From assembly GCA_043797265.1 (NCBI GenBank), contig JAZDPV010000016.1:1-61282 (forward strand): a stretch of 61,282 nt of DNA, in the 5' to 3' direction. This document shows positions 5,824 through 43,630 of the stretch, piece after piece. The notes below the pieces were generated by a model. The model had not been told where the DNA came from and ran no database searches. It was given only the letters and a program-made list of their open reading frames with translations. The translations under genes were made by a program, and so were the position numbers. Every line of letters starts with the position of its first letter. The stretch's first letter is position 1. This DNA is from an archaeon. GTDB lineage: Archaea; Nanobdellota; Nanobdellia; Pacearchaeales; GW2011-AR1.

Positions 5824-7178
5824 TCTTTGCGGATTTGGTCACTCATGAAGAAAATTTTGTTTGATTCGACTTCGTGGATTTTGTCGGCTTGTTCGAATAC
5901 GACTGTTGCTTCTGGGAGTGCGAATTTACCGATGACGCCGACTTTTGAGTATACTATATAAGAGAACAGTCTTTCTTCGCCGGCGTTAAGGTCGCCGATG
6001 TTCCAGTGGATTCGTCGGCTTGCTGCGTCGATTTTGTCGGGTTTGTTCATTCCGAACTTGTTATAAATTTTTACAATTGCCGGGACTTTGTCGATGAGGG
6101 TTACATTTTCGACATTCTTTTTTGCTTTGAGCGACAGATTTATTTTAAGTGCGAATTCGTCGTGTTTTGTGCGGACGTGGTGGACGGATTTTTTGACTTC
6201 GACTTTTGTTTCGGTGAATCGCTTGAATCCGAAGAGGGCGAGTGTGACGACGACGATTATAAGGAATGGGAAGATGTAGTTTGTTCTGGCTTTGATTGTG
6301 AATGTTTCGGTTGGGTTTAGTTTTTGTTTTAGCCATGAATATTCGATGGCGAATCCTTTTCTTTCGACGGTGTCTGGTTCGATGTTGAAGGTTGTGAAGA
6401 GTCGAGAGAAAATATTTTTTGTTGCTTGGACTTGGACGTTTTCGAGGACGTTGCCGGCGTTGGTTTTGGTTATTGTTTGTGTCCGGATTAGGATTCCTGA
6501 TTTATCTTCGGTTGTTGTTATTCCTTTTTTTTCGCCGAGGTAGAGGTTGCCTTCGATTTTTTTCTTGCCGTCTTTTGTCTGGAAGGTTGATTCTATAATG
6601 TAGATGCCGGCTTTTGTTTTTTTAAGTTTGTCGTCGCTGACGTTTGCCGTGAATTCGAGTTTTTGATTTGGGCCGAGGTCAAATGTTGCTTCGGTGCTGA
6701 ATAGGATTGATGAGAATTTTGCTTCGAGATTTTTGAGTGTTGTTGATTCAAGATTTTTGACATAGAATTTTACTTCGCCTGATGCGGGGTCGATTGTGTC
6801 GGAGCCGACTTCAATTGTGTCTTCGAGTTTTAGAATTTTGGCCAGGAATTTTTCTTCGGTTTTTTCAAAGCCGCGGTGGTTGAGGATGTATGTGAAGGTG
6901 TAATAGCCGTCGACGTCGAGATTTTCGGTCGGGGAGATTGTGAATGTTTTTATGAATGGGTCGGTTGAAATTGTAAATATTTCTGATGGTGTGGTTGTGA
7001 TGTCGGCGAGGGTGTAGAGGTTGTATGTTCCGGGTGTTGCGTTTGTGATTGTGAGTGTCAGGTCGATTGATGAGTCGATTTCTGGGATGAGGACGTTTGA
7101 GTTGTATTGGGCTGAGATGTTCAATGCCGATGCGAAACTGAGCGAGATTAATATTGCTATTAAGAATAATAGTTTCAT
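5820..7178 (-). CDS. exported protein with Ig-like/DUF11-like regions and one internal TM helix
   Basis: Signal peptide MKLLFLIAILISLSFASA. TM helix IFPFLIIVVVTLALFGF. C-terminal 'IHWNIGDLNAGEERLFSYIV' resembles the DUF11 conserved repeat. Confidence 0.55.
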   Translation of the reverse strand: MKLLFLIAILISLSFASALNISAQYNSNVLIPEIDSSIDLTLTITNATPGTYNLYTLADITTTPSEIFTISTDPFIKTFTISPTENLDVDGYYTFTYILNHRGFEKTEEKFLAKILKLEDTIEVGSDTIDPASGEVKFYVKNLESTTLKNLEAKFSSILFSTEATFDLGPNQKLEFTANVSDDKLKKTKAGIYIIESTFQTKDGKKKIEGNLYLGEKKGITTTEDKSGILIRTQTITKTNAGNVLENVQVQATKNIFSRLFTTFNIEPDTVERKGFAIEYSWLKQKLNPTETFTIKARTNYIFPFLIIVVVTLALFGFKRFTETKVEVKKSVHHVRTKHDEFALKINLSLKAKKNVENVTLIDKVPAIVKIYNKFGMNKPDKIDAASRRIHWNIGDLNAGEERLFSYIVYSKVGVIGKFALPEATVVFEQADKIHEVESNKIFFMSDQIRKD

Positions 7179-15229: not shown

Positions 15230-16357
15230 ATGGTTGGTGAAAATGATTTAGATGTTGCTTATAGAAAAGCGGTCGAGGTTTTGAAAATTTGTTCTACGAA
15301 GTATGGGTTGTTTGCGTCGGGGGGAAAGAAGGGGTATAAGGGGGTTTGGAGCCGGGATAGTTTTATTGCGATGCTCGGGGCGAGTTTGGTTGGCGGCGAG
15401 GATGGGGAGTTGATTAGAGAGACATTTAAGAGGAGTTTGGAAACGCTTGGTAAATATCAGAGCGAGCGGGGGCAGATTCCGAATGCGGTTTTGAAATTTG
15501 AGAGACGGAAGCCGCAGGTTGATTATCTTTCGATTGATTCGAGCTTGTGGTTTGTGATTGGGCATTATGTTTATCGACGGAGATATAGGGATAGTTCGTT
15601 GTTTGGGAAGTGGAAGAAGGAAATTGAGAAGGCGATTTTTTGGTTGACGTTTCAGGATATGGGCGAGGATTTGATGTTGGAGCAGTTGCCGACGACGGAT
15701 TGGCAGGACGCGTTTCCGCACAAGTATGGGAGGACGATAAATACGCAGGCGTTGTATTACAAAGTTTTGAGGTTGGTTGGGAGGAGGAGGATTGCGAGGA
15801 GGTTGAGGAAGTTAGTTAACAAGGAGGATGATGTGAATTTGTGGAACGGGAATTTTTATTGGGCGTATCGGTGGAAGAATCACAACAAGTATCGGGAGAT
15901 TGGGGAGTGGTTTGATTCGCTGGGAAATTTGCTGGCGATTGTTTTCGGGTTGGCGGATAGGAAGATGGCGAGGAAGATTGTTAGTTATATCGAGGAGAAC
16001 AGGATTGCGGAGCCGTATCCGGTTAAGGCGATTTTTCCGACGATAAAAAGGGGGAGCAAGTATTGGCAGGATTATTATATGGATTGTGCGGCGGGGAAGG
16101 CGGGGCATTATTTGAATGGTGGGATTTGGCCGTTTATCGGCGGGTTTTATGTTTTGGCGTTGGTGAAGTTGAGGAAGTTTGGAGAGGCGGAAGTTGAGTT
16201 GAGGAAGTTGGCGTCGTCGTGTCTGAGGGGAAATGTTTTTCCGGAGTGGATTGAGCCGAAGACGAAAAAGACGCACGGGGTTTATCAGGCGTGGAGTGCG
16301 GGGATGTATATTTTGGCGCATGAAAGTTTGAAGAGAAGACGGGTGCTGATATTTTGA
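15230..16357 (+). CDS. six-hairpin glycoside hydrolase (GDE_C / GH100 invertase-like)
   Basis: 'WSRDSFIAMLGA', 'LPTTDWQDAF' and 'YLNGGIWPFIGGFY', typical of (alpha/alpha)6 glucosidase/debranching-type enzymes. Confidence 0.6.
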   Translation: MVGENDLDVAYRKAVEVLKICSTKYGLFASGGKKGYKGVWSRDSFIAMLGASLVGGEDGELIRETFKRSLETLGKYQSERGQIPNAVLKFERRKPQVDYLSIDSSLWFVIGHYVYRRRYRDSSLFGKWKKEIEKAIFWLTFQDMGEDLMLEQLPTTDWQDAFPHKYGRTINTQALYYKVLRLVGRRRIARRLRKLVNKEDDVNLWNGNFYWAYRWKNHNKYREIGEWFDSLGNLLAIVFGLADRKMARKIVSYIEENRIAEPYPVKAIFPTIKRGSKYWQDYYMDCAAGKAGHYLNGGIWPFIGGFYVLALVKLRKFGEAEVELRKLASSCLRGNVFPEWIEPKTKKTHGVYQAWSAGMYILAHESLKRRRVLIF

Positions 16358-16362
16358 AGGGG

Positions 16363-16402
16363 AATAATTGCTTACAAATTTCACAGATGGACACGGATTT
16401 TT
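16363..16402 (+). repeat. solo copy of the CACGGAT-type 3'-flank element
   Basis: AATAATTGCTTACAAATTTCACAGATGGACACGGATTTTT has about 35/40 identity to the element after the GxxExxY gene at 19546..19585. Confidence 0.7.
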
Positions 16403-19124: not shown

Positions 19125-19585
19125 ATTGCTCACGGATTGGCACGGATTAAAATTAAGATGAAACATGAATATATTACGGAGAAAATTATAAAAGTTTTTT
19201 ATGAAGTTTACAATGTTCTTGGGTATGGATTTTTGGAGAAGGTTTATGAAAATGCTTTGAAAATTGAGTTTGATAAAATTGGGTTGAGATATGTTAATCA
19301 GTATTCGATTAAAGTTTTTTATAAGGGAAAAATTGTAGGAGATTATGTTGCTGATTTTATTGTTGAGAATAAGGTTGTAGTTGAGGTGAAGGCGATTAAA
19401 AAATTTAGTAAGGTCGAAGAGTCACAGTTGTTGAATTATTTGACTGCTACAGATAAGGAAGTTGGGTTGTTGTTGAATTTTGGAGAAGAGGCGGAGTTTA
19501 AGAGGAAGGTTTATGATAATGAATTAAAGAAATATTTAGGTGAGGAATAATGGCTCACGGATTTCACGGATGGACACGGATTTTT
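19125..19585 (+). mobile_element. GxxExxY gene cassette bounded by CACGGAT-type repeats
   Basis: Left flank is ATTGCTCACGGATTGGCACGGATTAAAATT. Right flank is AATAATGGCTCACGGATTTCACGGATGGACACGGATTTTT. The interior is AT-rich. Confidence 0.5.
19158..19550 (+). CDS. GxxExxY family protein (PD-(D/E)XK-like)
   Basis: 'GYGFLEKVYENAL' (GxxExxY) and 'DFIVENKVVVEVKA'. Paralog of 22435..22836. Confidence 0.8.
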   Translation: MKHEYITEKIIKVFYEVYNVLGYGFLEKVYENALKIEFDKIGLRYVNQYSIKVFYKGKIVGDYVADFIVENKVVVEVKAIKKFSKVEESQLLNYLTATDKEVGLLLNFGEEAEFKRKVYDNELKKYLGEE

Positions 19586-21722: not shown

Positions 21723-22345
21723 AGCCGATTGTTGTTGTGAATTTTAAGACGTATAAGCAGGGGGCTGGGGTTTTGAAGTTGGCGCGGGCAATTGAGAAAG
21801 TTGATGAGGAAATTATTGTCGGGGTGCAAGCGTGTGATGTTTTGGCGGTTTCGTCGAGGACGAATTTGAAAGTTTTTTGCCAGCATGTTGATTGGCAGAA
21901 GCCGGGGCGCGGGACCGGGTTTATTTTGCCCGAGGCGGTGAAAGCGGATGGGGCGGTTGGAGTTTTTTTGAATCATTCGGAGCATAAATTGAAATGGAGA
22001 ATTTTGAAGAGGACGGTTCGGAGATGTCGCGAGGTTGGGCTGGGTGTTTTGATTTTTGCGTCGGGGTTGAGAGAGGCCCGACGAGTCCGGAAGTTGAAGC
22101 CGGATTATTTGGTTGTTGAGCCGCCGGAGTTGGTTGGTGGAAAGGTTTCAGTTTCTTCCCGTCCTGAATTTATTTTGGATTTGTCGAGGAATCTGAAATG
22201 TGATTTTTTGGTTGGAGCCGGGATTTGTTCGAGGAGGGATGTTGTTCGGGCTTTGGAGTTGGGGGCGGTTGGCGTCGCTGTTTCTTCTGGTATCGTGAGG
22301 GCTCGCGAGCCGGGGCGAGTTTTGCGGAGGATGCTCACGAAATAA
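21719..22345 (+). CDS. tpiA: triosephosphate isomerase (short archaeal type)
   Basis: 'VVVNFKTY', 'GVFLNHSEH', 'PDYLVVEPPELVG' and 'LVGAGI'. 208 aa. Confidence 0.9.
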   Translation: MKPIVVVNFKTYKQGAGVLKLARAIEKVDEEIIVGVQACDVLAVSSRTNLKVFCQHVDWQKPGRGTGFILPEAVKADGAVGVFLNHSEHKLKWRILKRTVRRCREVGLGVLIFASGLREARRVRKLKPDYLVVEPPELVGGKVSVSSRPEFILDLSRNLKCDFLVGAGICSRRDVVRALELGAVGVAVSSGIVRAREPGRVLRRMLTK

Positions 22346-22875
22346 TTGCTCACGAATAACACGGATTGACACGAATTTTTTATTGGGGTAAATTATATGG
22401 AAGGTTTTTTATATAAGGAGTATTTGTTGGGCTGATGGAGTTTGAGGGGATTAGCGGGAAAGTTATTGAGATTTTTTATCGGGTTTATAATGGATTGGGT
22501 TATGGATTTTTGGAGAGTGTTTATGAGAGGGCGATGATGCACGAGTTTGTGAAGGAGGGGATTGAATTTGTTAATCAGTTTCCGATTAAGGTTTATTATG
22601 ACGGGGTTGTCGTCGGGAGTTTTGTTGCGGATTTTGTCGTTGAAGGGAATTTGGTGGTTGAGTTGAAAGCGGTGCGTGAGGTGTCTCAGGCAGATGAGAA
22701 TCAGTTGTTGAATTATTTGAGTTCGACAGACAAGGAAATAGGATTATTGTTGAACTTTGGTGAGAAACCGGAGATTAAACGAAAGGTTTATGATAATGTT
22801 CGGAAGAAAAATTATCGTGGTGGGCTCACGAAATAATTGCTCACGAATAAACACGGATTGACACGAATTTTTTTT
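22333..22875 (+). mobile_element. GxxExxY gene cassette flanked by ~50-bp direct repeats that include the tpiA stop region
   Basis: GCTCACGAAATAATTGCTCACGAATAACACGGATTGACACGAATTTTTT at 22333..22381 is repeated at 22824..22875 with one extra A. Both tpiA and the cassette ORF therefore end in LTK-stop. Confidence 0.7.
22435..22836 (+). CDS. GxxExxY family protein (PD-(D/E)XK-like)
   Basis: 'GYGFLESVYERAM' and 'DFVVEGNLVVELKA'. It has its own TATA (TTTTATATAA, about 20 nt upstream). Confidence 0.8.
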   Translation: MEFEGISGKVIEIFYRVYNGLGYGFLESVYERAMMHEFVKEGIEFVNQFPIKVYYDGVVVGSFVADFVVEGNLVVELKAVREVSQADENQLLNYLSSTDKEIGLLLNFGEKPEIKRKVYDNVRKKNYRGGLTK

Positions 22876-34240: not shown

Positions 34241-34739
34241 TTTTGTTGAAAATTTGGATTGCGATGATTAGAATTATTAAGCCGAGGATGAGGCCGGCGA
34301 GGATGTCTGTGAGCCAATGGACTCTGAGGTAAATTCTTGAGAGAACGACGGCGAAGATGATTAGTACTGTTGCGATTTTTGTTTTGGCTGAATTGTTTTT
34401 TGTGAATATGTATATGATTAGCCCCAAAAATACGACGGACGTTGTGACGTGGCCGCTCGGGAATGAGAAGCCGGTTGCTGTGATTATTGGATTTGGCGGG
34501 CGGGCGACTTGAAGAATGTTTTTTAGTATTTCGATTATTGCGGCTGTGATTAGAATTGTTGATGCGAGGAGTATGCTTTGTTTTTTTTGGGATTTGGCTG
34601 CGAGGTAGATTGATGTTGCGATGGCGATTATGGTGAGTGTTATTGGGTCGAAGATTAGGGATATGATTTTTGCGAAGATGGTTATTGTGGGATTTTGGAT
34701 TTGTTGGATTAGGTTTAGTGTTGTTGTGTCGAGTGTCAT
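34194..34739 (-). CDS. PAP2-family phosphatase (undecaprenyl-diphosphatase-like)
   Basis: 'KNILQVARPP', 'FPSGH' and 'SRIYLRVHWLTD'. Multi-TM. Confidence 0.8.
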   Translation of the reverse strand: MTLDTTTLNLIQQIQNPTITIFAKIISLIFDPITLTIIAIATSIYLAAKSQKKQSILLASTILITAAIIEILKNILQVARPPNPIITATGFSFPSGHVTTSVVFLGLIIYIFTKNNSAKTKIATVLIIFAVVLSRIYLRVHWLTDILAGLILGLIILIIAIQIFNKIIFSKSNKPHNLSQP

Positions 34740-34789
34740 GTTTGTATTTGGATGGAATATTTTATAAAGTTTGGGTTGGTTTGATTTTC

Positions 34790-35200
34790 ATGAGAGTTGT
34801 TTTGATTTCTTGTGTGAGTAAAAAATTAGACGAAAAAGCGAAGGTTAAAGATTTGTATATTAGTTCTCTCTTTAGATATAATTTGAGATATGCTTGTTTG
34901 TTGAAACCTGATAAGATTTTTGTTCTTTCTGCGAAGTATGGGCTCGTTGGTTTAGATGAGGAGATTGAACCATATGATAAAACTTTAAATGGGATGAACA
35001 GCGTCGAGAAAAAGAAATGGGCGGATGATGTTTTTGTTCAATTAAGTAATGAGATTGATGTTGATAGGGATGAGGTGATTTTTTTGGCGGGAGAGAATTA
35101 TAGAAAATATTTAATTGAGAGAGTGAAAAATTTTAGAATTCCCCTGAAAGGATTGGGTATTGGGAGGCAGTTAAAATTTTTAAAGGAGAATGTGACATGA
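34790..35200 (+). CDS. conserved hypothetical protein (DUF6884-like)
   Basis: 'VVLISCVSKK...DLYISSLF...FVLSAKYGL...IEPYDKTL'. Stop is ATGA-overlapped with the next gene. Confidence 0.4.
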   Translation: MRVVLISCVSKKLDEKAKVKDLYISSLFRYNLRYACLLKPDKIFVLSAKYGLVGLDEEIEPYDKTLNGMNSVEKKKWADDVFVQLSNEIDVDRDEVIFLAGENYRKYLIERVKNFRIPLKGLGIGRQLKFLKENVT

Positions 35201-35853
35201 GTGAAATATGCAAAGAGTTGCATTTGATTTTTAATGAGATGAAAAGGTTTCGTTTCCCTTTTAATGAGAATAAGATTCCTTTGAATGGGATTTATGTTTT
35301 GTTTGAAAATGGAGAGGAGACGCATGGGGGAAATAGAATTGTCAGGGTCGGGACGCATACGGGAGTTAATCAATTGAGGTCGAGGATTAGACAACATTTT
35401 GTTAACGAGAATAAAGACCGAAGTATTTTCAGGAAGAATATTGGTCGGGCGTTGCTCAGTAAAAATAAGGATTTGTTTTTGGAAGATTGGGAGAAGGATT
35501 TGACGACGAGAAAGGCGAAAGAAAAATTTTCTGAGACAATTGATTTTGAGAAACGGAAGGCGGTCGAGAAACTTGTGACGGATTGTCTTAGAAAAAATTT
35601 CAGTTTTGTTGTTTTCGGGGTTGGTGATAAAGATAAGCGACTTGAATTTGAGTCGAAAATTATTTCTACGATTTCGTTGTGTGATGAATGTCGTGCTTCT
35701 AAAAATTGGCTTGGAAATTTTTCTCCGAAAACGAAGATAAGAGAGAGTGGGTTGTGGTTGGTTAATGAATTGTATAAAGATGGGTTTGATGAGGATGGTT
35801 TTAGGGAGTTTGTGAAGGAGTTGAAGTTGAGCGTATCTGATGGGAGTTTGTAA
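35197..35853 (+). CDS. GIY-YIG-like nuclease-domain protein
   Basis: 'NGIYVLFENGE...RIVRVGTH...LRSRIRQH'. The second motif is divergent (RVG in place of YIG). Confidence 0.45.
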   Translation: MSEICKELHLIFNEMKRFRFPFNENKIPLNGIYVLFENGEETHGGNRIVRVGTHTGVNQLRSRIRQHFVNENKDRSIFRKNIGRALLSKNKDLFLEDWEKDLTTRKAKEKFSETIDFEKRKAVEKLVTDCLRKNFSFVVFGVGDKDKRLEFESKIISTISLCDECRASKNWLGNFSPKTKIRESGLWLVNELYKDGFDEDGFREFVKELKLSVSDGSL

Positions 35854-35975: not shown

Positions 35976-36449
35976 ATGGTGAAGAAACTGAAGGTTGGGT
36001 TTTTTTCGTTTACGTGTTGTGAGGGGTGCGTGGTTTCGTTTTTGGAAATTTTGAATGAGAAGTTTTTTGAATGGCGGGACAAGGTTGATATTTTGTATTT
36101 GCGGGCGCTGAAAAAGGACGGGGAGATTGCGCCGATGGATGTTGCGTTTGTCGAGGGTGCGGTGTCGACGGAGAGCGAGGTCCGGAAGTTGAAGTTGATT
36201 CGAAAGAACGCGGGGAAGTTGGTCGCGATTGGGAGTGGGGCGATTAATGGATGGCCGTCGAATTTTAGGAATAATTTTAAGGGCGAGAAAAAAAAGAGGG
36301 TGGATGTTTTAGTGAAGAAGATGGGGCAGATTAAGAAAGTTTTGCCGTTGAAGGATGTCGTGAAAGTTGATGATGAGGTGCCGGGTTGCCCGATTGACGA
36401 AAAGATTTTTATCGAGAAGATGGAGAGGTTGATGGGGGGTAGGGGGTAG
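35976..36449 (+). CDS. [NiFe]-hydrogenase small subunit, short group-3 (delta-like) form
   Basis: 'FFSFTCCEGC' and 'VPGCPID'. Only 157 aa, with only proximal-cluster-type Cys residues visible. Confidence 0.75.
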   Translation: MVKKLKVGFFSFTCCEGCVVSFLEILNEKFFEWRDKVDILYLRALKKDGEIAPMDVAFVEGAVSTESEVRKLKLIRKNAGKLVAIGSGAINGWPSNFRNNFKGEKKKRVDVLVKKMGQIKKVLPLKDVVKVDDEVPGCPIDEKIFIEKMERLMGGRG

Positions 36450-36488
36450 GGGGTAGGGGGTAGATGGTAGGGGGTAGGAGGTAGGGAG
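36440..36488 (+). repeat. TAG-heptamer array x7 (TAGGGGG-type) containing the small-subunit stop codon
   Basis: TAGs at 36440, 36447 (the stop codon), 36454, 36461, 36468, 36475 and 36482. Confidence 0.9.
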
Positions 36489-36498
36489 AGGAAAAAAT

Positions 36499-37266
36499 TG
36501 GAGGAGAAAATGCATAAGTTTGATTTGGATTTGAAGAATAGTAAAATATTTAAATCTATGAATATTAATTGTATTAGCGCTTTTCGGAGCGTGAGTATAT
36601 CCCCCGGTGATCTTTTGGGGTTGCCGGATGATTTTATTTTTTTTGGAGTGTGTTTTTAATGGAAGATGTTGTGGTTTTTGTTGATGATGGTTTTTTTGGA
36701 TTGGTAAAAAAACATTTTCAAAAAGAAACTAAGAAGAGGGGTTGTTTTCTTCAGACTTTTAGAAATATTTGTAAAAATGAAAATTTAAATTTGAAACATT
36801 TATTTTTTTATACTGCGCCTCCTTATCAAAATAAAATTTCTGATAATAAAGAAGATTTTTTAAAAAAGAAATATGATCTTTTGGTAAAGATGTTGAAAAA
36901 TAAGAAGTGGATTACGGTTCGAGAGGGAAGATGCCAGCGATTGAAAATAGGTGATGAATTTAAATATTTTCAAAAGGGTGTTGATTCTTGGATAGTTGCT
37001 GATATGTGTTTAATGAAAGAAGATTTCCCGGAAGTTAAGAAAATAATTTTGATTTCTTCTGATTCAGATTTTGCTCCGATAATTAAATATCTTAAGGAAA
37101 GAAATAAGTTTGAGGTGATATTGTATACTTATTTTGATAAGAAGAGAAATAGTTGTTTTTCTCTAAGTAATTATCTTTTGCAAGCTTGTTCTAAGTGGGT
37201 TAGAATGACCAGCTCTTTTTTTAATGGAGGAGAAAATGCATAAGTTTGATTTGGATTTGAAGAATA
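36499..37266 (+). mobile_element. NYN-gene cassette with perfect 42-bp flanking direct repeats
   Basis: TGGAGGAGAAAATGCATAAGTTTGATTTGGATTTGAAGAATA occurs at 36499..36540 and 37225..37266. The repeat holds the RBS and first 10 codons of the hydrogenase large subunit. Confidence 0.8.
36659..37243 (+). CDS. NYN-domain (LabA/DUF88-like) predicted RNase
   Basis: 'VVVFVDDGFF', 'KGVDSWIVADM' and 'ILISSDSDFAPII'. The ATG is TAATG-overlapped with a 49-aa leader ORF (36510..36659) that begins at the stranded hydrogenase start. Confidence 0.75.
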   Translation: MEDVVVFVDDGFFGLVKKHFQKETKKRGCFLQTFRNICKNENLNLKHLFFYTAPPYQNKISDNKEDFLKKKYDLLVKMLKNKKWITVREGRCQRLKIGDEFKYFQKGVDSWIVADMCLMKEDFPEVKKIILISSDSDFAPIIKYLKERNKFEVILYTYFDKKRNSCFSLSNYLLQACSKWVRMTSSFFNGGENA

Positions 37267-40519: not shown

Positions 40520-40628
40520 GCCCGTGTCGCATAGTGGTATTGCATACCCCTTCGGGGCACGAGAACCTGCTCATAAATTCGCAGGCAAGACTGGAAATCT
40601 TGGTCCTTCGGGACGCCCAGGTTCAATT
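40520..40628 (+). pseudogene. truncated tRNA-Ser(GGA) copy with a 41-nt insertion after the D arm
   Basis: Matches the intact gene from position 1 to the T loop. It lacks the T-stem 3' strand and acceptor 3' strand. The insert is TACCCCTTCGGGGCACGAGAACCTGCTCATAAATTCGCAGG. A further 14-nt 5' fragment lies at 40468..40481. Confidence 0.6.
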
Positions 40629-40681: not shown

Positions 40682-40762
40682 GCCCGTATCGCATAGTGGT
40701 ATTGCACAAGACTGGAAATCTTGGTCCTTCGGGACACCCAGGTTCAATTCCTGGTGCGGGCG
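40682..40762 (+). tRNA. tRNA-Ser (GGA), class II with a long variable arm
   Basis: Folds as GCCCGTA-TC-GCAT..TTGC-A-CAAGA-CTGGAAA-TCTTG-[GTCCTTCGGGACAC]-CCAGG-TTCAATT-CCTGG-TGCGGGC-G. Confidence 0.85.
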
Positions 40763-40774
40763 TATGGAGGTAAG

Positions 40775-40939
40775 ATGGATAGGGAAAATATAGAGTTGGC
40801 CAAGGAGCATATTGAGTTGGCTGGGGAATTAATTGAGAAAGAGGCGGTTGATGTCGAGGGGGAGAAGCGTGAGATTTTGAGGAAGAGTGTTTTTGACTTG
40901 GAGAAGGCCGGGGCTGAGCTTGAAGAGGGTGCGGATTAA
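40775..40939 (+). CDS. small acidic helical protein (54 aa)
   Basis: Trimmed from ORF 40721, whose 5' part overlaps the tRNA-Ser gene. Confidence 0.4.
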   Translation: MDRENIELAKEHIELAGELIEKEAVDVEGEKREILRKSVFDLEKAGAELEEGAD

Positions 40940-41048
40940 TTTAAGTTTGAATTTAGGACGCGGATGTCGGGGCTGTAGAGATTAACTTTGTCGCCTTCGT
41001 CAAGATAGAATTCTATGAATTTTTGTGGTTGTTTTTTTTCAGGATTTT
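40936..41048 (-). pseudogene. displaced, frameshifted 3'-end remnant of the XPD-like helicase gene
   Basis: 41 nt (40955..40995) are identical to 41706..41746. 40996..41048 is about 90% identical to 41796..41848. Relative to the intact gene it has a 51-nt gap and a 1-nt deletion. Confidence 0.75.
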
Positions 41049-41848
41049 GATGCTGAGAAATTTGTTAGGTCTTTGATAAATTCTGTATTTATTATTTGTG
41101 TGGATGAGGCTACTTTTTTTAGATGGTATGAAATTGATTTTTTGTTTCCAATTGCTACGTATATTATTTTTTTGTTGAGCCTGTTGATTATTGATGAGAT
41201 AACGCTTGAGAAGTCGCCGTCGTTTGATATCAGGAAAGCTTTGTCGTAATTATTGTTTATGGCGTCGAAGATTAAATCTTGTGCTATGTTTATATCTGTT
41301 GCTTTTTCTATGTAGAATGTTTTGTTGTCTTTTTTGTGTTTTTCTAATCTGCCGAATATTATTTTTAGTTTTTCTATTTTTCTTATTTTTTCGAAGAAGC
41401 GTTGTTGTTCTGCATACATTTTTGGGTTTGATTCTCCCACTGGAGAGATGTAATAATTAATTTTGACTAACTTGTATTTTTTTGCGAGTTTTTTGCAGAA
41501 TTTTTCTATGTCGATTTTTTGGTTAAAAGTTTTCTTAATGGAAAAATAAAAATTATTTCCGTCGATATATATTATCACTTTTTTCTTATCAGAATTCATA
41601 TTATAAAAAACATGGGGTTAGTTTCCTATCCCCATGGTGTTAATTAATGTTGATAATTATTTAGAGTTATTAAATCTTTCTGTTGTTGCTATTTGATTTG
41701 CGTTGAGGACGCGGATGTCGGGGCTGTAGAGATTAACTTTGTCGCCCTTGAATCGGATGCCTCTTGCGATTTTTTGATAGAGGTCTCGTCGGGCTTTGTC
41801 GAGATAGAATTCCATGAATTTTTGTGGTTGTTCTTTTTTTAGGATTTT
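40955..41848 (-). mobile_element. NYN-gene cassette flanked by duplicated helicase 3'-end sequence
   Basis: The intact helicase C-terminus (41657..41848) and the remnant (40936..41048) bracket a hairpin plus the NYN gene. Confidence 0.7.
41039..41599 (-). CDS. NYN-domain (LabA/DUF88-like) predicted RNase
   Basis: 'VIIYIDGNNFY', 'KATDINIAQDL' and 'FLISNDGDFSSVI'. Its last codons run into the duplicated helicase sequence. Confidence 0.75.
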   Translation of the reverse strand: MNSDKKKVIIYIDGNNFYFSIKKTFNQKIDIEKFCKKLAKKYKLVKINYYISPVGESNPKMYAEQQRFFEKIRKIEKLKIIFGRLEKHKKDNKTFYIEKATDINIAQDLIFDAINNNYDKAFLISNDGDFSSVISSIINRLNKKIIYVAIGNKKSISYHLKKVASSTQIINTEFIKDLTNFSASKS

Positions 41849-43630
41849 CCAGAAGAGGCCCTGGATGTTTGGGTAGGGAAATTTTGTGATGACGATTGAG
41901 TTGCATTTGTCGCCGGGGAAGTCGACGCCTCGCGCGCATTTTGTCGTGAATAAAATATCTGTTTCGCCCGATGTGAATTTGTCGACGGCGGTGTTGCCTT
42001 TTGATTGGAGCTCGCTGAGTTTTTCCTGGGTGATTAGGTTTTCGAGTTTTAGGGTTTCGTTTTCTGAATTTGTCGGGAGGTCGCTGAATGCGGAGATGTG
42101 GACGAGGGTTGGCGGTTCTGCTTTTGCCATGCACATGTCGAGGATTTTCAGGTATTGGTTTCGCGTGATTGTTCCGTCTTTGAAATTTTGGAAGGCGCAA
42201 TTTTTTTCGAGGCCGGTTCGTTGTTTGTTGATTGTGCCGGGATTTTGTGTTTCAGCCTCGATGGTTTTGAAATCTTTTAGCCCGAAGATGTCTTTGAGAA
42301 CTTGCTCGGAGTGGAGCGTGCCGGACATCATGACAAGGACGTTGTTTTGCTCGATTAGTTCTTTTAGTTTTTGGGCGAGATTGATTGAGACGATGGTGAC
42401 GAAAGTAGTTGGTAGGTGGTAGGGGGTAGAAGGTGGTTGATTGAATAATTTGTTTTGAACAGAATCTTTGTTGGTTTTTTCTATCGAGATGTAGGTTTCG
42501 TCGAGGAGGTTCTTGAAAGATTGGGCGATTTCGACGAGCGTGTTGTAGTAGTTTAGTTCTTCGTCTTCGGCGAGGTTCGGGTTTTCGATTGCGGTCTTGA
42601 TTATTTTTATAATTGGAGATTGTTTTATTTTTTGGATTTCGATTTCTTCGGAGTAAATGGCGTCGTTGATTTCGCGGATTAATTTTTTTATAATTGTCTT
42701 GTCTGTTTGTTTTTGCGGGGCGAGGTTTGAGAGCGCGGTGTGGAGCCGGTTGAGATTTATTTTGCGCTCGTTGGCGAAGGAGTCGAGGAATTCGTCGCAT
42801 TCGTCGACGATGTCGAGGTCGGTTTTTGGTTTTCGTCCGATCATTGTTTCGATTTGATATTTTGCCGAGTTGAAGATTAGGACGTCGGCGTTGGCGTAGG
42901 CTTCGCATTGGTCGTAGTAGGCGCAACCTTTTTTTCGCTGGAAGAGTGCGAATTCTTTTCCGCAAGTTGCTTCGTATTTTATTTTTTTGAAGTCGGTGAG
43001 GCCTTTTGGTTTTATGTCGGCGGGGATGAGCGGGGACCAGTAGGGGCAGGCGGGGGCGATGTTCATTCTTCTGATGTCCGACGCTGTTTTGAAATCTTCC
43101 GGACTGACCAGTGGATTTTTGTTGATGTATCCCAAAAGTTTTGCCGTGTTTTTTTCGCGGATTTCGATTGTGCAAGGGAGGTCTGGCGAATCTGCAGTTG
43201 GTAGTTGGCAGTTGGTAGTTGGTAATTCTTTTTCTGCGAATGGACATCGGAAATTATTTCGGCCTTTTATGACGGCGATGTCGAGGGGTTTTTTGTTTTG
43301 CTTGAGGATGAATTTGTTTTTAGTGTAATCTTTTTCGTATTGTTCCTGGAGGGATTTGATTGGGACGATGATTGATGTTTTTTTGAAATGGCGCGCGAGG
43401 TTGAGGGCGATTGCTGATTTGCCGGTGCCACAGACGCCCTTGATGAAAATTAATTTGTTGCCGGCGTTGATTGCGTCGAGGATTTCCTTAACGACGTCGG
43501 CCTGGGTTTTGTTATTTGAGAAAAGCAGGGGCTTGAGTTCTTCTCCTTCTGTGTCGAAGGGACCGAAGAACTTGCTGTTAGATTGTCGCTTGTCGCTTGT
43601 CGCATCTGTTCGTTTATATAATGACCACAT
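41657..43630 (-). CDS. XPD/Rad3-like (DinG family) superfamily 2 DNA helicase
   Basis: Walker A 'GVCGTGKS', 'VDECDEF', FeS-type Cys residues ('NFRCPF','LPCT','ACPYW') and C-terminal 'ARGVDFPGD'. Confidence 0.8.
   Translation of the reverse strand: MWSLYKRTDATSDKRQSNSKFFGPFDTEGEELKPLLFSNNKTQADVVKEILDAINAGNKLIFIKGVCGTGKSAIALNLARHFKKTSIIVPIKSLQEQYEKDYTKNKFILKQNKKPLDIAVIKGRNNFRCPFAEKELPTTNCQLPTADSPDLPCTIEIREKNTAKLLGYINKNPLVSPEDFKTASDIRRMNIAPACPYWSPLIPADIKPKGLTDFKKIKYEATCGKEFALFQRKKGCAYYDQCEAYANADVLIFNSAKYQIETMIGRKPKTDLDIVDECDEFLDSFANERKINLNRLHTALSNLAPQKQTDKTIIKKLIREINDAIYSEEIEIQKIKQSPIIKIIKTAIENPNLAEDEELNYYNTLVEIAQSFKNLLDETYISIEKTNKDSVQNKLFNQPPSTPYHLPTTFVTIVSINLAQKLKELIEQNNVLVMMSGTLHSEQVLKDIFGLKDFKTIEAETQNPGTINKQRTGLEKNCAFQNFKDGTITRNQYLKILDMCMAKAEPPTLVHISAFSDLPTNSENETLKLENLITQEKLSELQSKGNTAVDKFTSGETDILFTTKCARGVDFPGDKCNSIVITKFPYPNIQGLFWKILKKEQPQKFMEFYLDKARRDLYQKIARGIRFKGDKVNLYSPDIRVLNANQIATTERFNNSK
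42406..42436 (+). repeat. heptamer array (TAGNNGG x4), antisense to and in frame within the helicase gene
   Basis: TAGTTGG TAGGTGG TAGGGGG TAGAAGG on the + strand. Encodes PPSTPYHLPTT on the - strand. Confidence 0.85.
43195..43225 (+). repeat. heptamer array (YAGTTGG x4), antisense to and in frame within the helicase gene
   Basis: CAGTTGG TAGTTGG CAGTTGG TAGTTGG. Encodes LPTTNCQLPTA on the - strand. Confidence 0.9.

Follow-up and report, generated by a model that had tools for sequence, protein, structure and literature searches.

An NYN nuclease cassette bracketed by a duplicated helicase 3' end in a DPANN archaeon

The window analysed here is the whole 61,282-nt stretch of archaeal DNA. 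On its minus strand, an intact Rad3/XPD-like helicase gene precedes an insert in which a TATA-like box and a stem-loop lead up to an NYN nuclease ORF; a degenerate copy of the helicase end lies beyond. The insert has as neighbours the helicase gene, a convergent small ORF (sORF), tRNA-Ser, S10 and SNase. The features are listed below with the basis of each assignment in parentheses; X1 and X2 denote the two copies of the helicase 3' segment.

41657..43630, minus strand: intact Rad3/XPD-like helicase gene (Pfam Helicase_C_2 and ResIII; C-terminal comparison)
41691..41848, minus strand: X1, the working copy of the helicase 3' segment, 158 nt (encodes motif VI; conserved in all relatives)
41049..41690, minus strand: insert, 642 nt (promoter-like box, leader hairpin, body of the NYN ORF and 10-nt unique filler)
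41666..41680, minus strand: putative BRE/TATA-like box gaaagatttaataac (box at the same distance in related cassettes)
41611..41636, minus strand: leader stem-loop CATGGGG-A-TAG-GAAA-CTA-A-CCCCATG (covariation among related loci)
41039..41599, minus strand: NYN/LabA-like nuclease ORF, 186 aa (PF01936)
41049..41058, minus strand: filler TCTCAGCATC, 10 nt, joining the NYN body to X2 on the right side of the insert (unique in the window)
40936..41048, minus strand: X2, a decaying remnant of the original helicase 3' end (alignment to X1)
40775..40939, plus strand: convergent sORF of 54 aa, native to the locus and outside the cassette (adjoins the helicase stop in the related loci L115, L119 and L018)
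36499..37266, plus strand: sister cassette of the same architecture (repeat comparison, Pfam)

The NYN ORF is the only ORF with a Pfam domain inside the insert. ORF and Pfam searches found no integrase, transposase or other mobility gene in the insert or beside it, and no terminal inverted repeats were found at the insert.

We found that the insert is bracketed by collinear direct repeats of the helicase gene. Local alignment and blastn against the whole window identified two blocks. Block 1 pairs 41697-41746 with 40946-40995 (50 nt, 94%, E 4e-16) and contains an identical run of 41 nt (41706-41746 = 40955-40995). Block 2 pairs 41794-41848 with 40995-41048 (55 nt, 91%, E 5e-15). The repeat had no blastn match anywhere else in the entire 61-kb window, and the repeated sequence is coding, not low-complexity. 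The original prediction, made from the letters alone, had given the minus-strand order as helicase, hairpin, NYN gene and remnant, with the 41-nt identity and a further ~53 nt at about 90%. Each element was found in its predicted place, and the pairwise alignment that had been proposed as a check was significant.

The downstream copy is decaying. The repeat spans 158 nt in the helicase gene (41848-41691) and 110 nt in the remnant (41048-40939), with 8 substitutions in 109 aligned nucleotides. X2 had been described as lacking 51 nt (17 codons). The gap is real, but the best alignment gives 48 nt (16 codons, ARRDLYQKIARGIRFK, plus an AAA>GAA change); it removes motif VI. The predicted 1-nt deletion is present in an A-run, and there is an additional 1-nt length difference near the 3' end. 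Beyond the 1-nt deletion the remnant is in frame and terminates with RVLNSNLN and TAA (40938-40936); this TAA and the stop codon of the convergent sORF overlap. The working helicase gene has lost its original stop codon and is read on into the insert, for 14 codons by one count and for 11 sense codons plus the new stop (41690-41657) by another. Its true start probably lies inside the annotated ORF, since its relatives are 623-644 aa long. These results support the prediction that an NYN cassette was inserted here between two copies of the helicase 3' end, of which the downstream one is decaying.

We compared the helicase C-termini of relatives, as had also been proposed. The helicase has more than 2000 homologues, and those from Pacearchaeota are 63-85% identical. 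Motif VI (KARRDLYQKIARGIRFK or close variants) was present in all 18 relatives read (63-85% identical), and all 18 ended with RV(L/I/H)Nxx(L/F/I)x and a stop codon, as does the remnant. Because these 16-17 residues and this C-terminus are found in 18/18 relatives, the ancestral form had the 17 residues and the remnant acquired its gap later. The ancestral end (SNLN and stop) is kept by the remnant and not by the working gene. Syntenic relatives without NYN at the site were also found (L016/L017, L115, L119, L116 and L117). In two of these empty sites, L115 and L119, the helicase stop overlaps the sORF stop, and X2 plus the sORF is collinear with this junction. The X sequence is single-copy in relatives. 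We conclude that X2 is the displaced original helicase 3' end, because relatives share its terminus and have the motif VI that it has lost, and because L115 and L119 are collinear with it. We considered the sORF as a possible part of the cassette and rejected this, as it is near no other NYN locus and is found only at this one, including in relatives without NYN.

A tandem arrangement without an NYN gene in orthologous helicases would have spoken against the original prediction. As a rule it was not seen; there was one possible exception. L118, where no NYN gene is involved, carries a displaced helicase 3' fragment that is 98% identical to the L116 allele, from another lineage, and matches L118's own helicase only over the first 26 nt. 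This is better read as a related recombination scar than as a tandem arrangement that contradicts the prediction. The L118 contig is short, was assembled automatically and might be a chimera. The tRNA-Ser beside the locus is also present twice: a complete copy that, together with its flank, is similar only to L117, and a truncated copy on the resident flank.

The NYN gene is patchy at the helicase site although the helicases are nearly equidistant. The window and L018 have it; L017, L115, L116, L117 and L119 do not. L018 contains an orthologous NYN gene at the identical left junction, with no remnant. Its insert is 86% identical to that of the window, and third-codon-position identity between the window and L018 is approximately 70%. 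The L018 NYN gene ends in AATTAA directly before the sORF flank, with no filler, and shows early decay (GTG start and a frameshift). The difference between the window and L018 is exactly the filler plus X2, between two AAATT motifs. X1 and X2 share several substitutions that are absent from L017 and L018, and X2 has substitutions specific to the window lineage. Because L018 has the same left junction without a remnant and X2 has these window-lineage substitutions, the duplication appears to be younger than the first arrival of NYN at the locus or to have been homogenised by gene conversion. However, L018 could be a deletion derivative, by AAATT microhomology, of a window-like state rather than a donor-like state.

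The NYN ORF (41599..41039) matched PF01936 with 75 bits (cut-off 24.2) over residues 7-166. The closest solved structure to a profile of 27 homologues was LabA-like 2QIP (E 2.5e-9), and six acidic residues (D13, D102, D108, D112, D127 and D129) were invariant in 27/27 homologues. As predicted, the ORF runs into the duplicated sequence: its stop codon (41041-41039) is within X2, and the last three codons, including the stop, are in the remnant. The C-terminus is ~6 residues longer than the family norm. The nuclease is most likely a Mg-dependent RNase of the toxin or defence-effector kind, and it is unlikely that the NYN enzyme moved the cassette. To our knowledge, NYN/PIN-like domains are RNases or structure-specific nucleases, not sequence-specific DNA endonucleases, and the known families of homing endonucleases do not include NYN. 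A literature search found no description of an NYN-domain homing endonuclease, the two terms co-occurring only in passing, and a search for NYN together with Pacearchaeota found nothing. The NYN alignment had no viral relative in a scan of IMG/VR, which leaves a virus vector unsupported.

Measured from the left edge of the insert, the putative promoter box is ~10 nt in; the hairpin follows ~29 nt downstream of it. A AAAACTAT(A/T)TAAA-like box was present at the same distance in those related cassettes for which enough upstream sequence was read, and we take it as a candidate archaeal promoter of the cassette. The predicted 7-bp hairpin is present and is longer than described: the stem CATGGGG (41636-41630) / CCCCATG (41617-41611) is followed by an A.A mismatch, 3 further bp and a GAAA tetraloop. 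TTAATTAA (41647-41640) stands before it, and a T-run (41610-41605) and then the ATG come after it. The hairpin occurs in nearly all of ~96 related loci. At least 20 different sequence versions keep the canonical register, changes on both sides of the stem are seen at a minimum of 4 positions, and most loops are GNRA. No Rfam family fits the hairpin; tRNA-Ser was the sole Rfam match. If the promoter reading is right, the hairpin RNA would be 5'-terminal, and it probably buffers expression of the nuclease. In type III (ToxIN-like) toxin-antitoxin systems, a promoter is followed by a short structured RNA, a T-run and an RNase-type toxin gene. The NYN cassette has this same order, but the toxin fold is different and there are no tandem antitoxin repeats. 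We rejected a ToxIN-like antitoxin array, as only the single covarying hairpin, and no tandem repeat, was found upstream of the NYN ORF.

We found that cassettes of this kind are numerous and mobile. The NYN protein has 632 homologues, the closest 60-86% identical. They belong to a large Pacearchaeota/Woesearchaeota family whose genes carry their own promoter-like box and a covarying, usually GNRA-looped hairpin. No flanking gene was common to the 16 loci compared. In cassette pairs that are 86-90% identical, homology ends 78-171 nt upstream of the ATG and 17-130 nt beyond the stop. The cassette behind the helicase is a member of this large family, which moves between and within such genomes. 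This movable one-gene family is widespread and, apparently, so far undescribed.

Bracketing repeats recur in the family. In 9/56 non-redundant NYN loci, direct repeats of local sequence (23-173 nt) tightly bracket the NYN gene; approximately 0.4 such loci were expected (Poisson P 2e-10, a rough value). The repeats are unrelated from locus to locus and include tRNA 5' halves and membrane-protein coding sequence; several related cassettes adjoin tRNA genes. One locus, L015, has a perfect 55-nt repeat around its cassette. The edges of the inserts vary: on one side they lie 80 to 240 nt upstream of the ATG, and on the other anywhere between 19 nt within the repeat and 86 nt beyond the stop. Similar bracketing repeats were found around RelE, MazF and DUF4258 toxin-antitoxin cassettes. 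Two other candidates were rejected. The PDDEXK_3 cassette at 22435-22836 of the window was considered as a third target duplication, but its flanking repeats share a motif with the repeats that flank a paralogue at 19137-19550; they belong to the element or are terminator-like. L085 and L088 (99.5% identical) were considered as one cassette in two contexts, but they share the left flank, in which the sole difference is an inserted hairpin of 94 nt, and diverge on the right side alone.

The window contains a second NYN cassette, at the hydrogenase genes. A perfect 42-nt repeat (36499-36540 = 37225-37266), made up of the RBS and first 10 codons of the hydrogenase large subunit, stands on both sides of a 684-nt insert. 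This insert holds a TATA-like box, a UUCG hairpin and an NYN ORF (36659..37243). L017 has no NYN gene between its hydrogenase subunit genes. The original prediction had referred, correctly, to this hydrogenase case and had called the two insertions the same element type. This holds for family and architecture: in both, a TATA-like box marks the insert edge, the leader has a tetraloop hairpin, and the ORF belongs to PF01936 and runs at its end into the repeat. It does not hold more closely, as the proteins are ~25% identical and the conserved leaders are different. The helicase insertion had also been proposed to be the older of the two. Decay of the repeat (93% with indels, against 100%) supports this; codon usage does not. 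C/A-ending codons had been taken as a sign of age, but both NYN genes fit the local strand skew equally well, and we rejected composition as an age marker. Both NYN genes are AT-richer than resident genes. In look-ups of the NYN1 family, each identical protein was found in a single context, with no repeats, a result that speaks neither for nor against mobility.

We infer that homology-facilitated illegitimate recombination, anchored in the helicase gene, gave rise to both the cassette and the duplication at this locus, with a probability of roughly 0.6. This type of recombination was reportedly described by de Vries and Wackernagel in 2002. The donor would have been a related genome with the cassette directly after its helicase stop, as in L018. 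A donor fragment would have entered by homologous recombination inside the helicase gene on one side, and by illegitimate joining on the other, via the 10-nt filler, 158 nt upstream of the recipient stop codon. The event would have been tolerated because the helicase was left intact. Later, the working copy would have lost its stop codon, so that it now reads into the insert, and the redundant X2 would have decayed by deletion of motif VI and a frameshift. The direct repeat would then not be part of the element: X1 would be the helicase end in use, and X2 the resident end pushed downstream. We know of no natural transformation or other DNA uptake route in these archaea.

We favour such one-sided recombination because the left junction is continuous helicase sequence and the unique 10-nt filler sits at the right junction only. 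In addition, X1 has an Ala allele, as in the NYN-bearing L018, and X2 has a Ser allele, as in the NYN-less L017 and L115. This difference, at one codon only, fits different allelic origins of the two copies. The L118 fragment and the tRNA-Ser pair carry alleles of other lineages and likewise fit. The substitutions shared by X1 and X2 imply that the donor must have been a close relative, or that gene conversion acted; a plain target duplication explains them equally well. A mosaic structure of the helicase gene was suggested by a Fisher test (p 0.007), but the split was chosen post hoc and a change-point permutation on clade-informative sites gave p 0.33, so we do not rely on it. The perfect repeats of the hydrogenase locus (42 nt) and L015 (55 nt) are silent on donor or recipient origin. 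One-sided recombination accounts for spread to the same anchor gene and not for the first arrival at new anchors.

Our results might also indicate a true insertion with long target duplication, which we regard as the main competitor but as clearly less probable. Here the cassette would have entered either a break with staggered nicks, one on each strand and separated by 158 nt, or an intermediate of replication or repair, and fill-in would have duplicated recipient sequence, so that X1 and X2 would both be of recipient origin and L018 would have lost X2 by a 5-nt microhomology deletion. The window-specific substitutions common to X1 and X2 are as expected, the fresh cases (42 and 55 nt) have perfect repeats, and the AAATT microhomology fits the deletion in L018. 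Repeats of 23-173 nt that span start or stop codons are also found with restriction-modification (RM) units (PMC2853133). However, a duplication as old as the insertion shared with L018 should have left X1 and X2 differing by far more than 7%. The filler on one side only and the alleles of different lineages in the L118 remnant and the tRNA-Ser pair argue against this as well, and there is no evident joining enzyme. A duplication unrelated to the cassette's arrival, in which the NYN gene was already resident and a later break downstream of it was repaired by a templated copy of ~110-158 nt from 800 nt upstream, plus filler, would explain why the window differs from L018 by just these two pieces and why the closest match of X2 is the window's own X1. 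We think this improbable, as it leaves unexplained the precise bracketing at 9/56 independent NYN loci and at the hydrogenase and toxin-antitoxin cassettes, as well as the exact collinearity of X2 with the native junction of helicase end and sORF in the empty sites.

Other explanations assign a role to the nuclease or to an integration system. The NYN protein might be a homing-type endonuclease that cuts NYN-less alleles near the helicase 3' end, with repair templated by an NYN-bearing allele bringing in the cassette, at times imperfectly, and leaving the duplicated end. The identical left junction in two lineages, the patchy distribution, the strictly conserved acidic active-site residues and the decay of the L018 gene, which fits a homing cycle, are consistent with this, as is the order of gene, new 3' end, nuclease ORF and old 3' end, which is reported for Allomyces atp6. 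But NYN/PIN-like domains act as RNases or structure-specific nucleases, cassettes whose RelE, MazF or DUF4258 products cut no DNA have similar bracketing repeats, NYN cassettes adjoin many unrelated anchors and the L118 scar occurs without NYN; we consider homing doubtful. Also doubtful is a broader version, in which the cassette is a self-propagating element whose nuclease, which the conserved GNRA hairpin RNA might guide or which might act on that RNA, breaks conserved gene ends and so brings about its own duplicative insertion. If true, this would be a mobile gene of the homing type whose nuclease fold had not been linked to DNA mobility before, and it would explain the 'embedding' of NYN (HEC-09-like) genes in operons across prokaryotes. 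Direct repeats flanking an insert are the classic signature of a site-specific integrative element or transposon (att sites or target-site duplication), and several related cassettes are at tRNA genes. This is very improbable, given that no integrase or transposase was found in or near the insert, no terminal inverted repeats were found, and insert edges and repeat lengths vary by locus, the repeats being whatever sequence is local. An assembly artefact is excluded because the copies differ by substitutions and indels and because the cassette was independently assembled in L018, L049 and L050.

This kind of insertion scar is already known from bacteria. RM units show 'insertion with long target duplication' (Nobusato et al. 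2000, Gene 259:99; Furuta et al. 2010, NAR, PMC2853133), with repeats of 46-423 bp that are single-copy at the empty site (PMC2853133). No archaeal case passed the screen of Furuta et al. 2010 (PMC2853133). RM units and the NYN cassette are both small nuclease-encoding units with no mobility gene and with long direct repeats of variable length. In both, the repeats often span the start or stop codon of a neighbour and keep that neighbour intact, with occasional gene fusion at a junction. They differ in cargo (R and M genes, against a single NYN/PIN-like gene with its own promoter-like box and leader hairpin) and in host, here a DPANN archaeon. The model for RM units also does not require repeat copies of different alleles, of which there are hints here. 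By the definition of Furuta et al. 2010, the locus has an empty site (L115, L119, L017, L116 and L117), repeats >30 bp and no mobility gene; it behaves like a member of this class, but with a single NYN gene in place of R and M genes it falls outside the class as first defined.

Orphaned 3' gene ends arise by recombination of the proposed type in the displacement of Rhs/CDI/T6SS effectors (Kirchberger et al. 2017, PMC5361080). There too a conserved gene is a one-sided anchor, the other end is illegitimate, a new 3' end arrives with cargo, and the resident 3' end is displaced downstream and decays. What those systems exchange belongs to the anchor gene itself, namely its toxic C-terminal domains and immunity genes; at NYN loci a free-standing cassette is the cargo, and an unrelated housekeeping gene (helicase, tRNA or hydrogenase) is the anchor. 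A comparable layout is found in fungal mitochondria, where free-standing GIY-YIG and LAGLIDADG ORFs lie behind genes whose 3' end is duplicated. Paquin et al. are said to have described, in 1994, a homing-endonuclease ORF at the 3' end of Allomyces atp6 with a C-terminal duplication. Like the NYN locus, it has a gene, a replacement 3' end, a nuclease ORF and a remnant of the old 3' end, and it is patchy among relatives. However, the nucleases are GIY-YIG/LAGLIDADG and not NYN, the NYN ORF and the host gene are not joined in frame, and a similar scar is found here around cassettes that encode no DNase.

DPANN archaea have tiny genomes with few recognised mobile elements. This locus and ~100 related ones show one route by which accessory genes enter such genomes: promoter-bearing one-gene nuclease cassettes, and apparently toxin-antitoxin pairs, are inserted at the ends of conserved genes and tRNAs, and a long duplication keeps the host gene intact while the spare copy decays. 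A footprint described only for bacterial RM units is thereby extended to archaea and to new cargo, and it provides a concrete sequence signature of recent gene gain in metagenome-assembled genomes. The comparison also brings to attention a large, highly conserved NYN family with a covarying leader hairpin.

The same route might explain how small defence-type genes come to be 'embedded' in operons. HEC-09 is an NYN-domain protein 'embedded' in bacterial Hma defence loci that showed no phage defence in assays (Payne et al. 2024, bioRxiv 10.1101/2024.01.29.577857). The tested protein has an extra N-terminal HTH-like region and comes from bacterial defence loci, whereas the neighbours of the NYN protein behind the helicase (NYN2) are housekeeping genes. 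Both are encoded by a single gene between or next to host genes and in the same orientation, and the PADLOC HEC-09 model matches NYN2 with E 3.3e-27 across positions 2-180 of its 203, almost the whole model.

The gene for a NYN-domain nuclease (NYN2) lies behind a Rad3/XPD-like helicase gene and is bracketed by a duplicated, decaying 3' end of that helicase. Reading the sequence from 42100 to 40700, together with a domain search, gave the predicted order on the minus strand.

43630..41657, minus strand: helicase ORF of 657 codons, with Helicase_C_2 and ResIII domains
41636-41611, minus strand: CATGGGG...CCCCATG in an AT-rich stretch between helicase end and NYN2, then a T-run (sequence reading)
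41599..41039, minus strand: NYN2 ORF of 186 codons (PF01936, 75 bits; cut-off 24.2)
41048-40939, minus strand: stretch beyond NYN2 that repeats the helicase 3' end (alignment)

Two collinear blocks emerged when the region was aligned locally and searched with blastn against the full window: 41794-41848 with 40995-41048 (91%, E 5e-15), and 41697-41746 with 40946-40995 (94%, E 4e-16). The original prediction of a 41-nt identical run (in the second block) and of another block about 90% identical was thus borne out. Blastn found no third copy elsewhere in the 61 kb. The copy in the working gene, X1 (41848-41691), is 158 nt long and the remnant, X2 (41048-40939), 110 nt. Relative to X1, X2 has a 48-nt gap and 8 substitutions, has lost 1 nt from an A-run and differs in length by 1 nt at one more place. 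The 1-nt deletion had been predicted, as had a gap, but the gap was put at 51 nt (17 codons), one codon more than in the best alignment. Overall, the reading of an insert bracketed by a duplicated, decaying helicase end was essentially right. Cassette, duplication and decay are established whichever of the two origin models considered below applies.

Among Pacearchaeota-type archaea, the helicase gene belongs to the core set. It has more than 2000 homologues, the best 120 of which are 63-85% identical. Comparison of C termini settled which version is ancestral. The segment K-A-R/K-R-D/E-L-x-Q-K-I/V-A/S-R-G-I/V-R-F/Y-K, which is SF2 helicase motif VI, was present in 18/18 sequences read, and all 18 end in ...RV(L/I/H)N-x-x-(L/F/I)-x-stop. 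Because all of these relatives have the segment, it is ancestral and its absence from X2 is secondary decay. X2 ends in ...RVLNSNLN-TAA, the ancestral ending. The working helicase has lost its stop and runs into the insert as a 14-codon extension (…NANQIATTERFNNSK). In some relatives (locus L117, 3001-6207; proteins P0128 and P0174), the same gene contains an intein with a LAGLIDADG homing endonuclease (1068-1077 aa), so the helicase gene is a repeated target of selfish elements. GGTAG/GTTGG repeats within the helicase ORF (42407-42434; 43196-43223) are translated into low-complexity inserts (…PTTNCQLPT…), which vary from relative to relative.

We located relatives' loci by exact-protein look-ups and found both empty and filled sites. 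In L016 and L017 (helicase 85% identical), the helicase is followed by 44 nt, tRNA-Ser, S10, SNase and, further on, the hydrogenase large and small subunits, with no NYN gene at either the helicase or the hydrogenase site. L116 and L117 have none at the helicase site. In L115 and L119, also without NYN, the helicase stop overlaps that of a convergent 53-codon ORF, and X2 plus the small convergent ORF of the window (40775..40939) follow this junction collinearly, base for base. X2 is therefore the original helicase end, still at its native position. The filled site, L018 (identical to L049 and L050), has an orthologous NYN gene (DNA 86% identical) with a frameshift and a GTG start. Its alignment with the window is continuous from the helicase through the insert, and the left junction is identical (…AAATTAA, then TCAACAACAGAAAG). 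L018 lacks the remnant; its insert is flanked by AAATTAATCA only. The five helicases are nearly equidistant (DNA identity 80-87%), and therefore the distribution of NYN at this site is patchy rather than clade-wise.

X2 is closest to the window's own X1, and several substitutions common to both are absent from L017 and L018. Third-codon-position identity between window and L018 is only ~70%, so a neutral copy that predated their split should differ from X1 by far more than the 7% observed. Three explanations are left: NYN first reached the helicase locus before the duplication arose, X2 has been held close to X1 by gene conversion, or the cassette was later re-acquired from a close relative.

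The final structure fits two models, and the scar is of kinds already known from bacteria. We lean, with a probability of about 0.45-0.5, towards one-sided homologous recombination. A donor fragment carrying a helicase end and the cassette would cross over within the recipient helicase, and its other end would be joined illegitimately upstream of the recipient stop, thereby displacing the recipient's own helicase end. Such homology-facilitated illegitimate recombination was put forward for orphaned 3' regions of Rhs/CDI/T6SS loci (PMC5361080). Alternatively, a staggered break was filled in on both sides, giving an insertion with long target duplication. This has a precedent in bacterial restriction-modification units (repeats of 46-423 bp, often over start or stop codons; PMC2853133), and we regard it as rather unlikely here. 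Other readings share the remaining weight.

Several observations favor one-sided recombination. A unique 10-nt filler is present at the right junction alone. X1 has an Ala codon, like NYN-bearing L018, where X2 has a Ser codon, like NYN-less L017 and L115. In L118 (2406-2546), an 86-nt spacer separates the helicase stop from 55 nt of a second copy of the helicase 3' region, with no NYN; this copy is 98% identical to the L116 allele and matches L118's own helicase gene over the first 26 nt only. However, L118 is a short Logan contig that ends at the second copy and could be a chimera. The tRNA-Ser(GGA) of the window is likewise duplicated.

40682-40762: complete tRNA-Ser(GGA)
40520-40544 (nt 1-25) and 40586-40628 (nt 26-68): truncated tRNA-Ser(GGA), upstream of the complete copy

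The complete copy and a 33-nt flank are similar only to L117. The truncated copy (nt 1-68) lacks the 3' acceptor strand, is split by a 41-nt insert with a CCCC-TTCG-GGGG hairpin, and lies on the resident flank, which is common to L017, L115 and L119. Against one-sided recombination stand the lineage-specific substitutions common to X1 and X2 and a change-point test for a mosaic helicase that was not significant (p 0.33); perfect repeats at other loci are uninformative. Separately, the tRNA-Ser of L018 (4285-4407) has an apparent ~123-nt insertion near the anticodon loop, the canonical position of tRNA introns; it was not called by ARAGORN (bacterial mode) or at the Rfam gathering threshold.

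The bracketing of NYN genes by repeats recurs. Among 56 non-redundant NYN loci with at least 300 nt on each side (260 kb), 9 have NYN tightly bracketed by direct repeats spaced 560-1000 nt. Only five similar pairs occur elsewhere in these loci, and on that basis ~0.4 brackets would be expected by chance (rough Poisson P 2e-10). The repeats are 23-173 nt long, 79-100% identical, and made of local sequence.

Examples of sequence duplicated around NYN cassettes
L035: 5' half of tRNA-Ser(GCU) plus upstream region (Rfam-confirmed)
L025: 5' part of another tRNA
L027: 173 nt of a membrane-protein coding sequence
L015: stop region of a small ORF (55 nt, 100%)

Insert edges vary: the left one lies 80-240 nt upstream of the ATG, and the right one anywhere between 19 nt inside the repeat and 86 nt past the stop. 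We found no fixed ends, inverted repeats or recombinase for NYN cassettes and therefore excluded transposition and att-type integration. Seven further loci have wider brackets (1.2-2 kb) around NYN and another small gene. The five other pairs enclose putative toxin-antitoxin-like pairs recognized by sequence motifs only (RelE-type, MazF-type, DUF4258/DUF2283 and AbrB/RelE).

Putative toxin-antitoxin-like pairs bracketed by direct repeats of 30-63 nt
L064: 4195-5206
L076: 4879-5509
L066: 878-3094
L057: 517-1434
L051: 1498-3089

L051 also has a PIN/VapC-like gene (by sequence motifs) beside NYN. L066 has three copies of one 55-80-nt sequence between successive cassettes, in an array-like arrangement, and L071 (99.75% identical to L066) diverges within the last repeat.

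The NYN2 locus is one member of a large single-gene cassette family in DPANN archaea, of which we found no description. At E <1e-5 there are 632 homologues; the best 120, from Pacearchaeota, Woesearchaeota and Nanoarchaeota assemblies, share 64-86% identity with NYN2. D13, D102, D108, D112, D127 and D129 are invariant, and the closest solved structure is 2QIP (LabA-like, uncharacterised). In the 15 genome and 80 metagenome loci fetched, flanking genes are unrelated between loci. Between cassette pairs (86-90% DNA-identical), homology extends no further than 78-171 nt upstream of the ATG and 17-130 nt beyond the stop. Where upstream sequence suffices, a TATA-like box, AAAACTAT(A/T)TAAA, is followed after ~25 nt by TAATTAA, a stem-loop, a T-rich linker and the ATG, all traveling with the ORF. 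The stem-loop keeps its register in at least 20 distinct versions (CATGGGG/CCCCATG, CATGAGATC/GATCTCATG, CATAGGATC/GATCCTATG, CAAAGGATC/GATCCTTTG, CGTAGGG/CCCTACG, CAGGGGG/CCCCCTG and others). Changes on both sides affect at least four positions of the stem, and the loops are mostly GNRA (GAAA, GCAA, GTAA, GGAA, GCGA). Such a pattern is indicative of a functional RNA hairpin located at the transcript 5' end or very close to it. The hairpin matched no Rfam family. We infer the RNA role, and a promoter role for the TATA-like box, from sequence.

At three loci, a 23S rRNA 3' end stands a short way upstream of the NYN cassette (L008 1-416, L058 1-215, L060 494-740); L060 has only the last ~250 nt of the rRNA model, and at the contig end, 1.4 kb downstream, 46 nt from this region are found again. 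In L088 (about 16-110), a 94-nt insertion with two perfect hairpins (CAGAGAATTC…GAATTCTCTG, TAGACAATTCTGTT…AACAGAATTGTCTA) parts the cassette from a flank that is contiguous with it in 99.5%-identical L085. This insertion may be a miniature mobile element.

A sister cassette is found at the hydrogenase genes.

36659..37243: NYN1, between hydrogenase small and large subunit genes, bracketed by a perfect 42-nt repeat

The repeat comprises a GGAGG ribosome-binding site and the ten codons that open the large-subunit gene. As at NYN2, the downstream repeat supplies the last codons of the ORF. The layout is also the same, with a TATA-like box right at the insert edge and a UUCG-looped hairpin. The proteins are only ~25% identical, and NYN1 is a member of another large family, which has a conserved leader of its own, GTGAGTATGAACCCCGGTGATC...GGTTGCCGGATG. 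In L017, which has no NYN between its hydrogenase genes, 47 nt of the large-subunit start are duplicated on either side of a 61-nt filler (6647-6801, reverse); the called gene includes this stretch as 36 extra N-terminal codons. Possible origins are a cassette since lost, of which this would be the scar, and a separate event at the same hot spot. About seven G-rich GGTAGGG heptamers, related to the repeats in the helicase ORF, lie behind the small-subunit gene (36438-36486). Just upstream of the hydrogenase genes and NYN1, two adjacent ORFs (34670-35853), AT-richer than resident genes, match two phage-defence candidates of PADLOC, PDC-M57A (E 7e-57) and PDC-M57B (E 3e-95).

The nuclease probably does not move its own cassette. 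Enzymes of the NYN/PIN-like type are RNases or structure-specific nucleases; RNase-toxin cassettes have the same scar around them, and L118 has it without any cassette; and the literature searched describes no homing endonuclease with a NYN domain, the two terms co-occurring only in passing. We therefore give insertion driven by the nuclease a low probability. NYN2 matches the PADLOC model HEC-09 (E 3e-27), a NYN protein noticed as "embedded" within Hma defence loci that gave no defence in the assays run (bioRxiv 10.1101/2024.01.29.577857). Our best guess is a toxin- or defence-type RNase whose own transcript would open with a hairpin of protective or regulatory role.

The window has two PDDEXK_3 (GxxExxY) nuclease genes (22435-22836 and 19137-19550; DNA identity 69%), both of which end in a ~50-nt motif, AATAATTGCTCACGAAT.ACACGGATTGACACGAATTTTT, which recurs at the stop of the upstream host gene (TIM, 22333-22387; glycoside hydrolase, 16349-16402). 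All four copies are related; we therefore rejected a plain target duplication, and the repeat belongs with the element or serves as a terminator. The window also has extreme strand asymmetry (plus strand, C 6974 vs G 17773). Almost all 2-kb bins have a GC skew of ~+0.45 regardless of gene orientation, far above usual prokaryotic values, and at third codon positions the skew is +0.5 to +0.9. We found no link between GC skew and Pacearchaeota in the literature searched. The syntenic relatives (L016-L018, L115-L117) have a skew of 0.33-0.45, compared with a median of 0.14 for all fetched loci.
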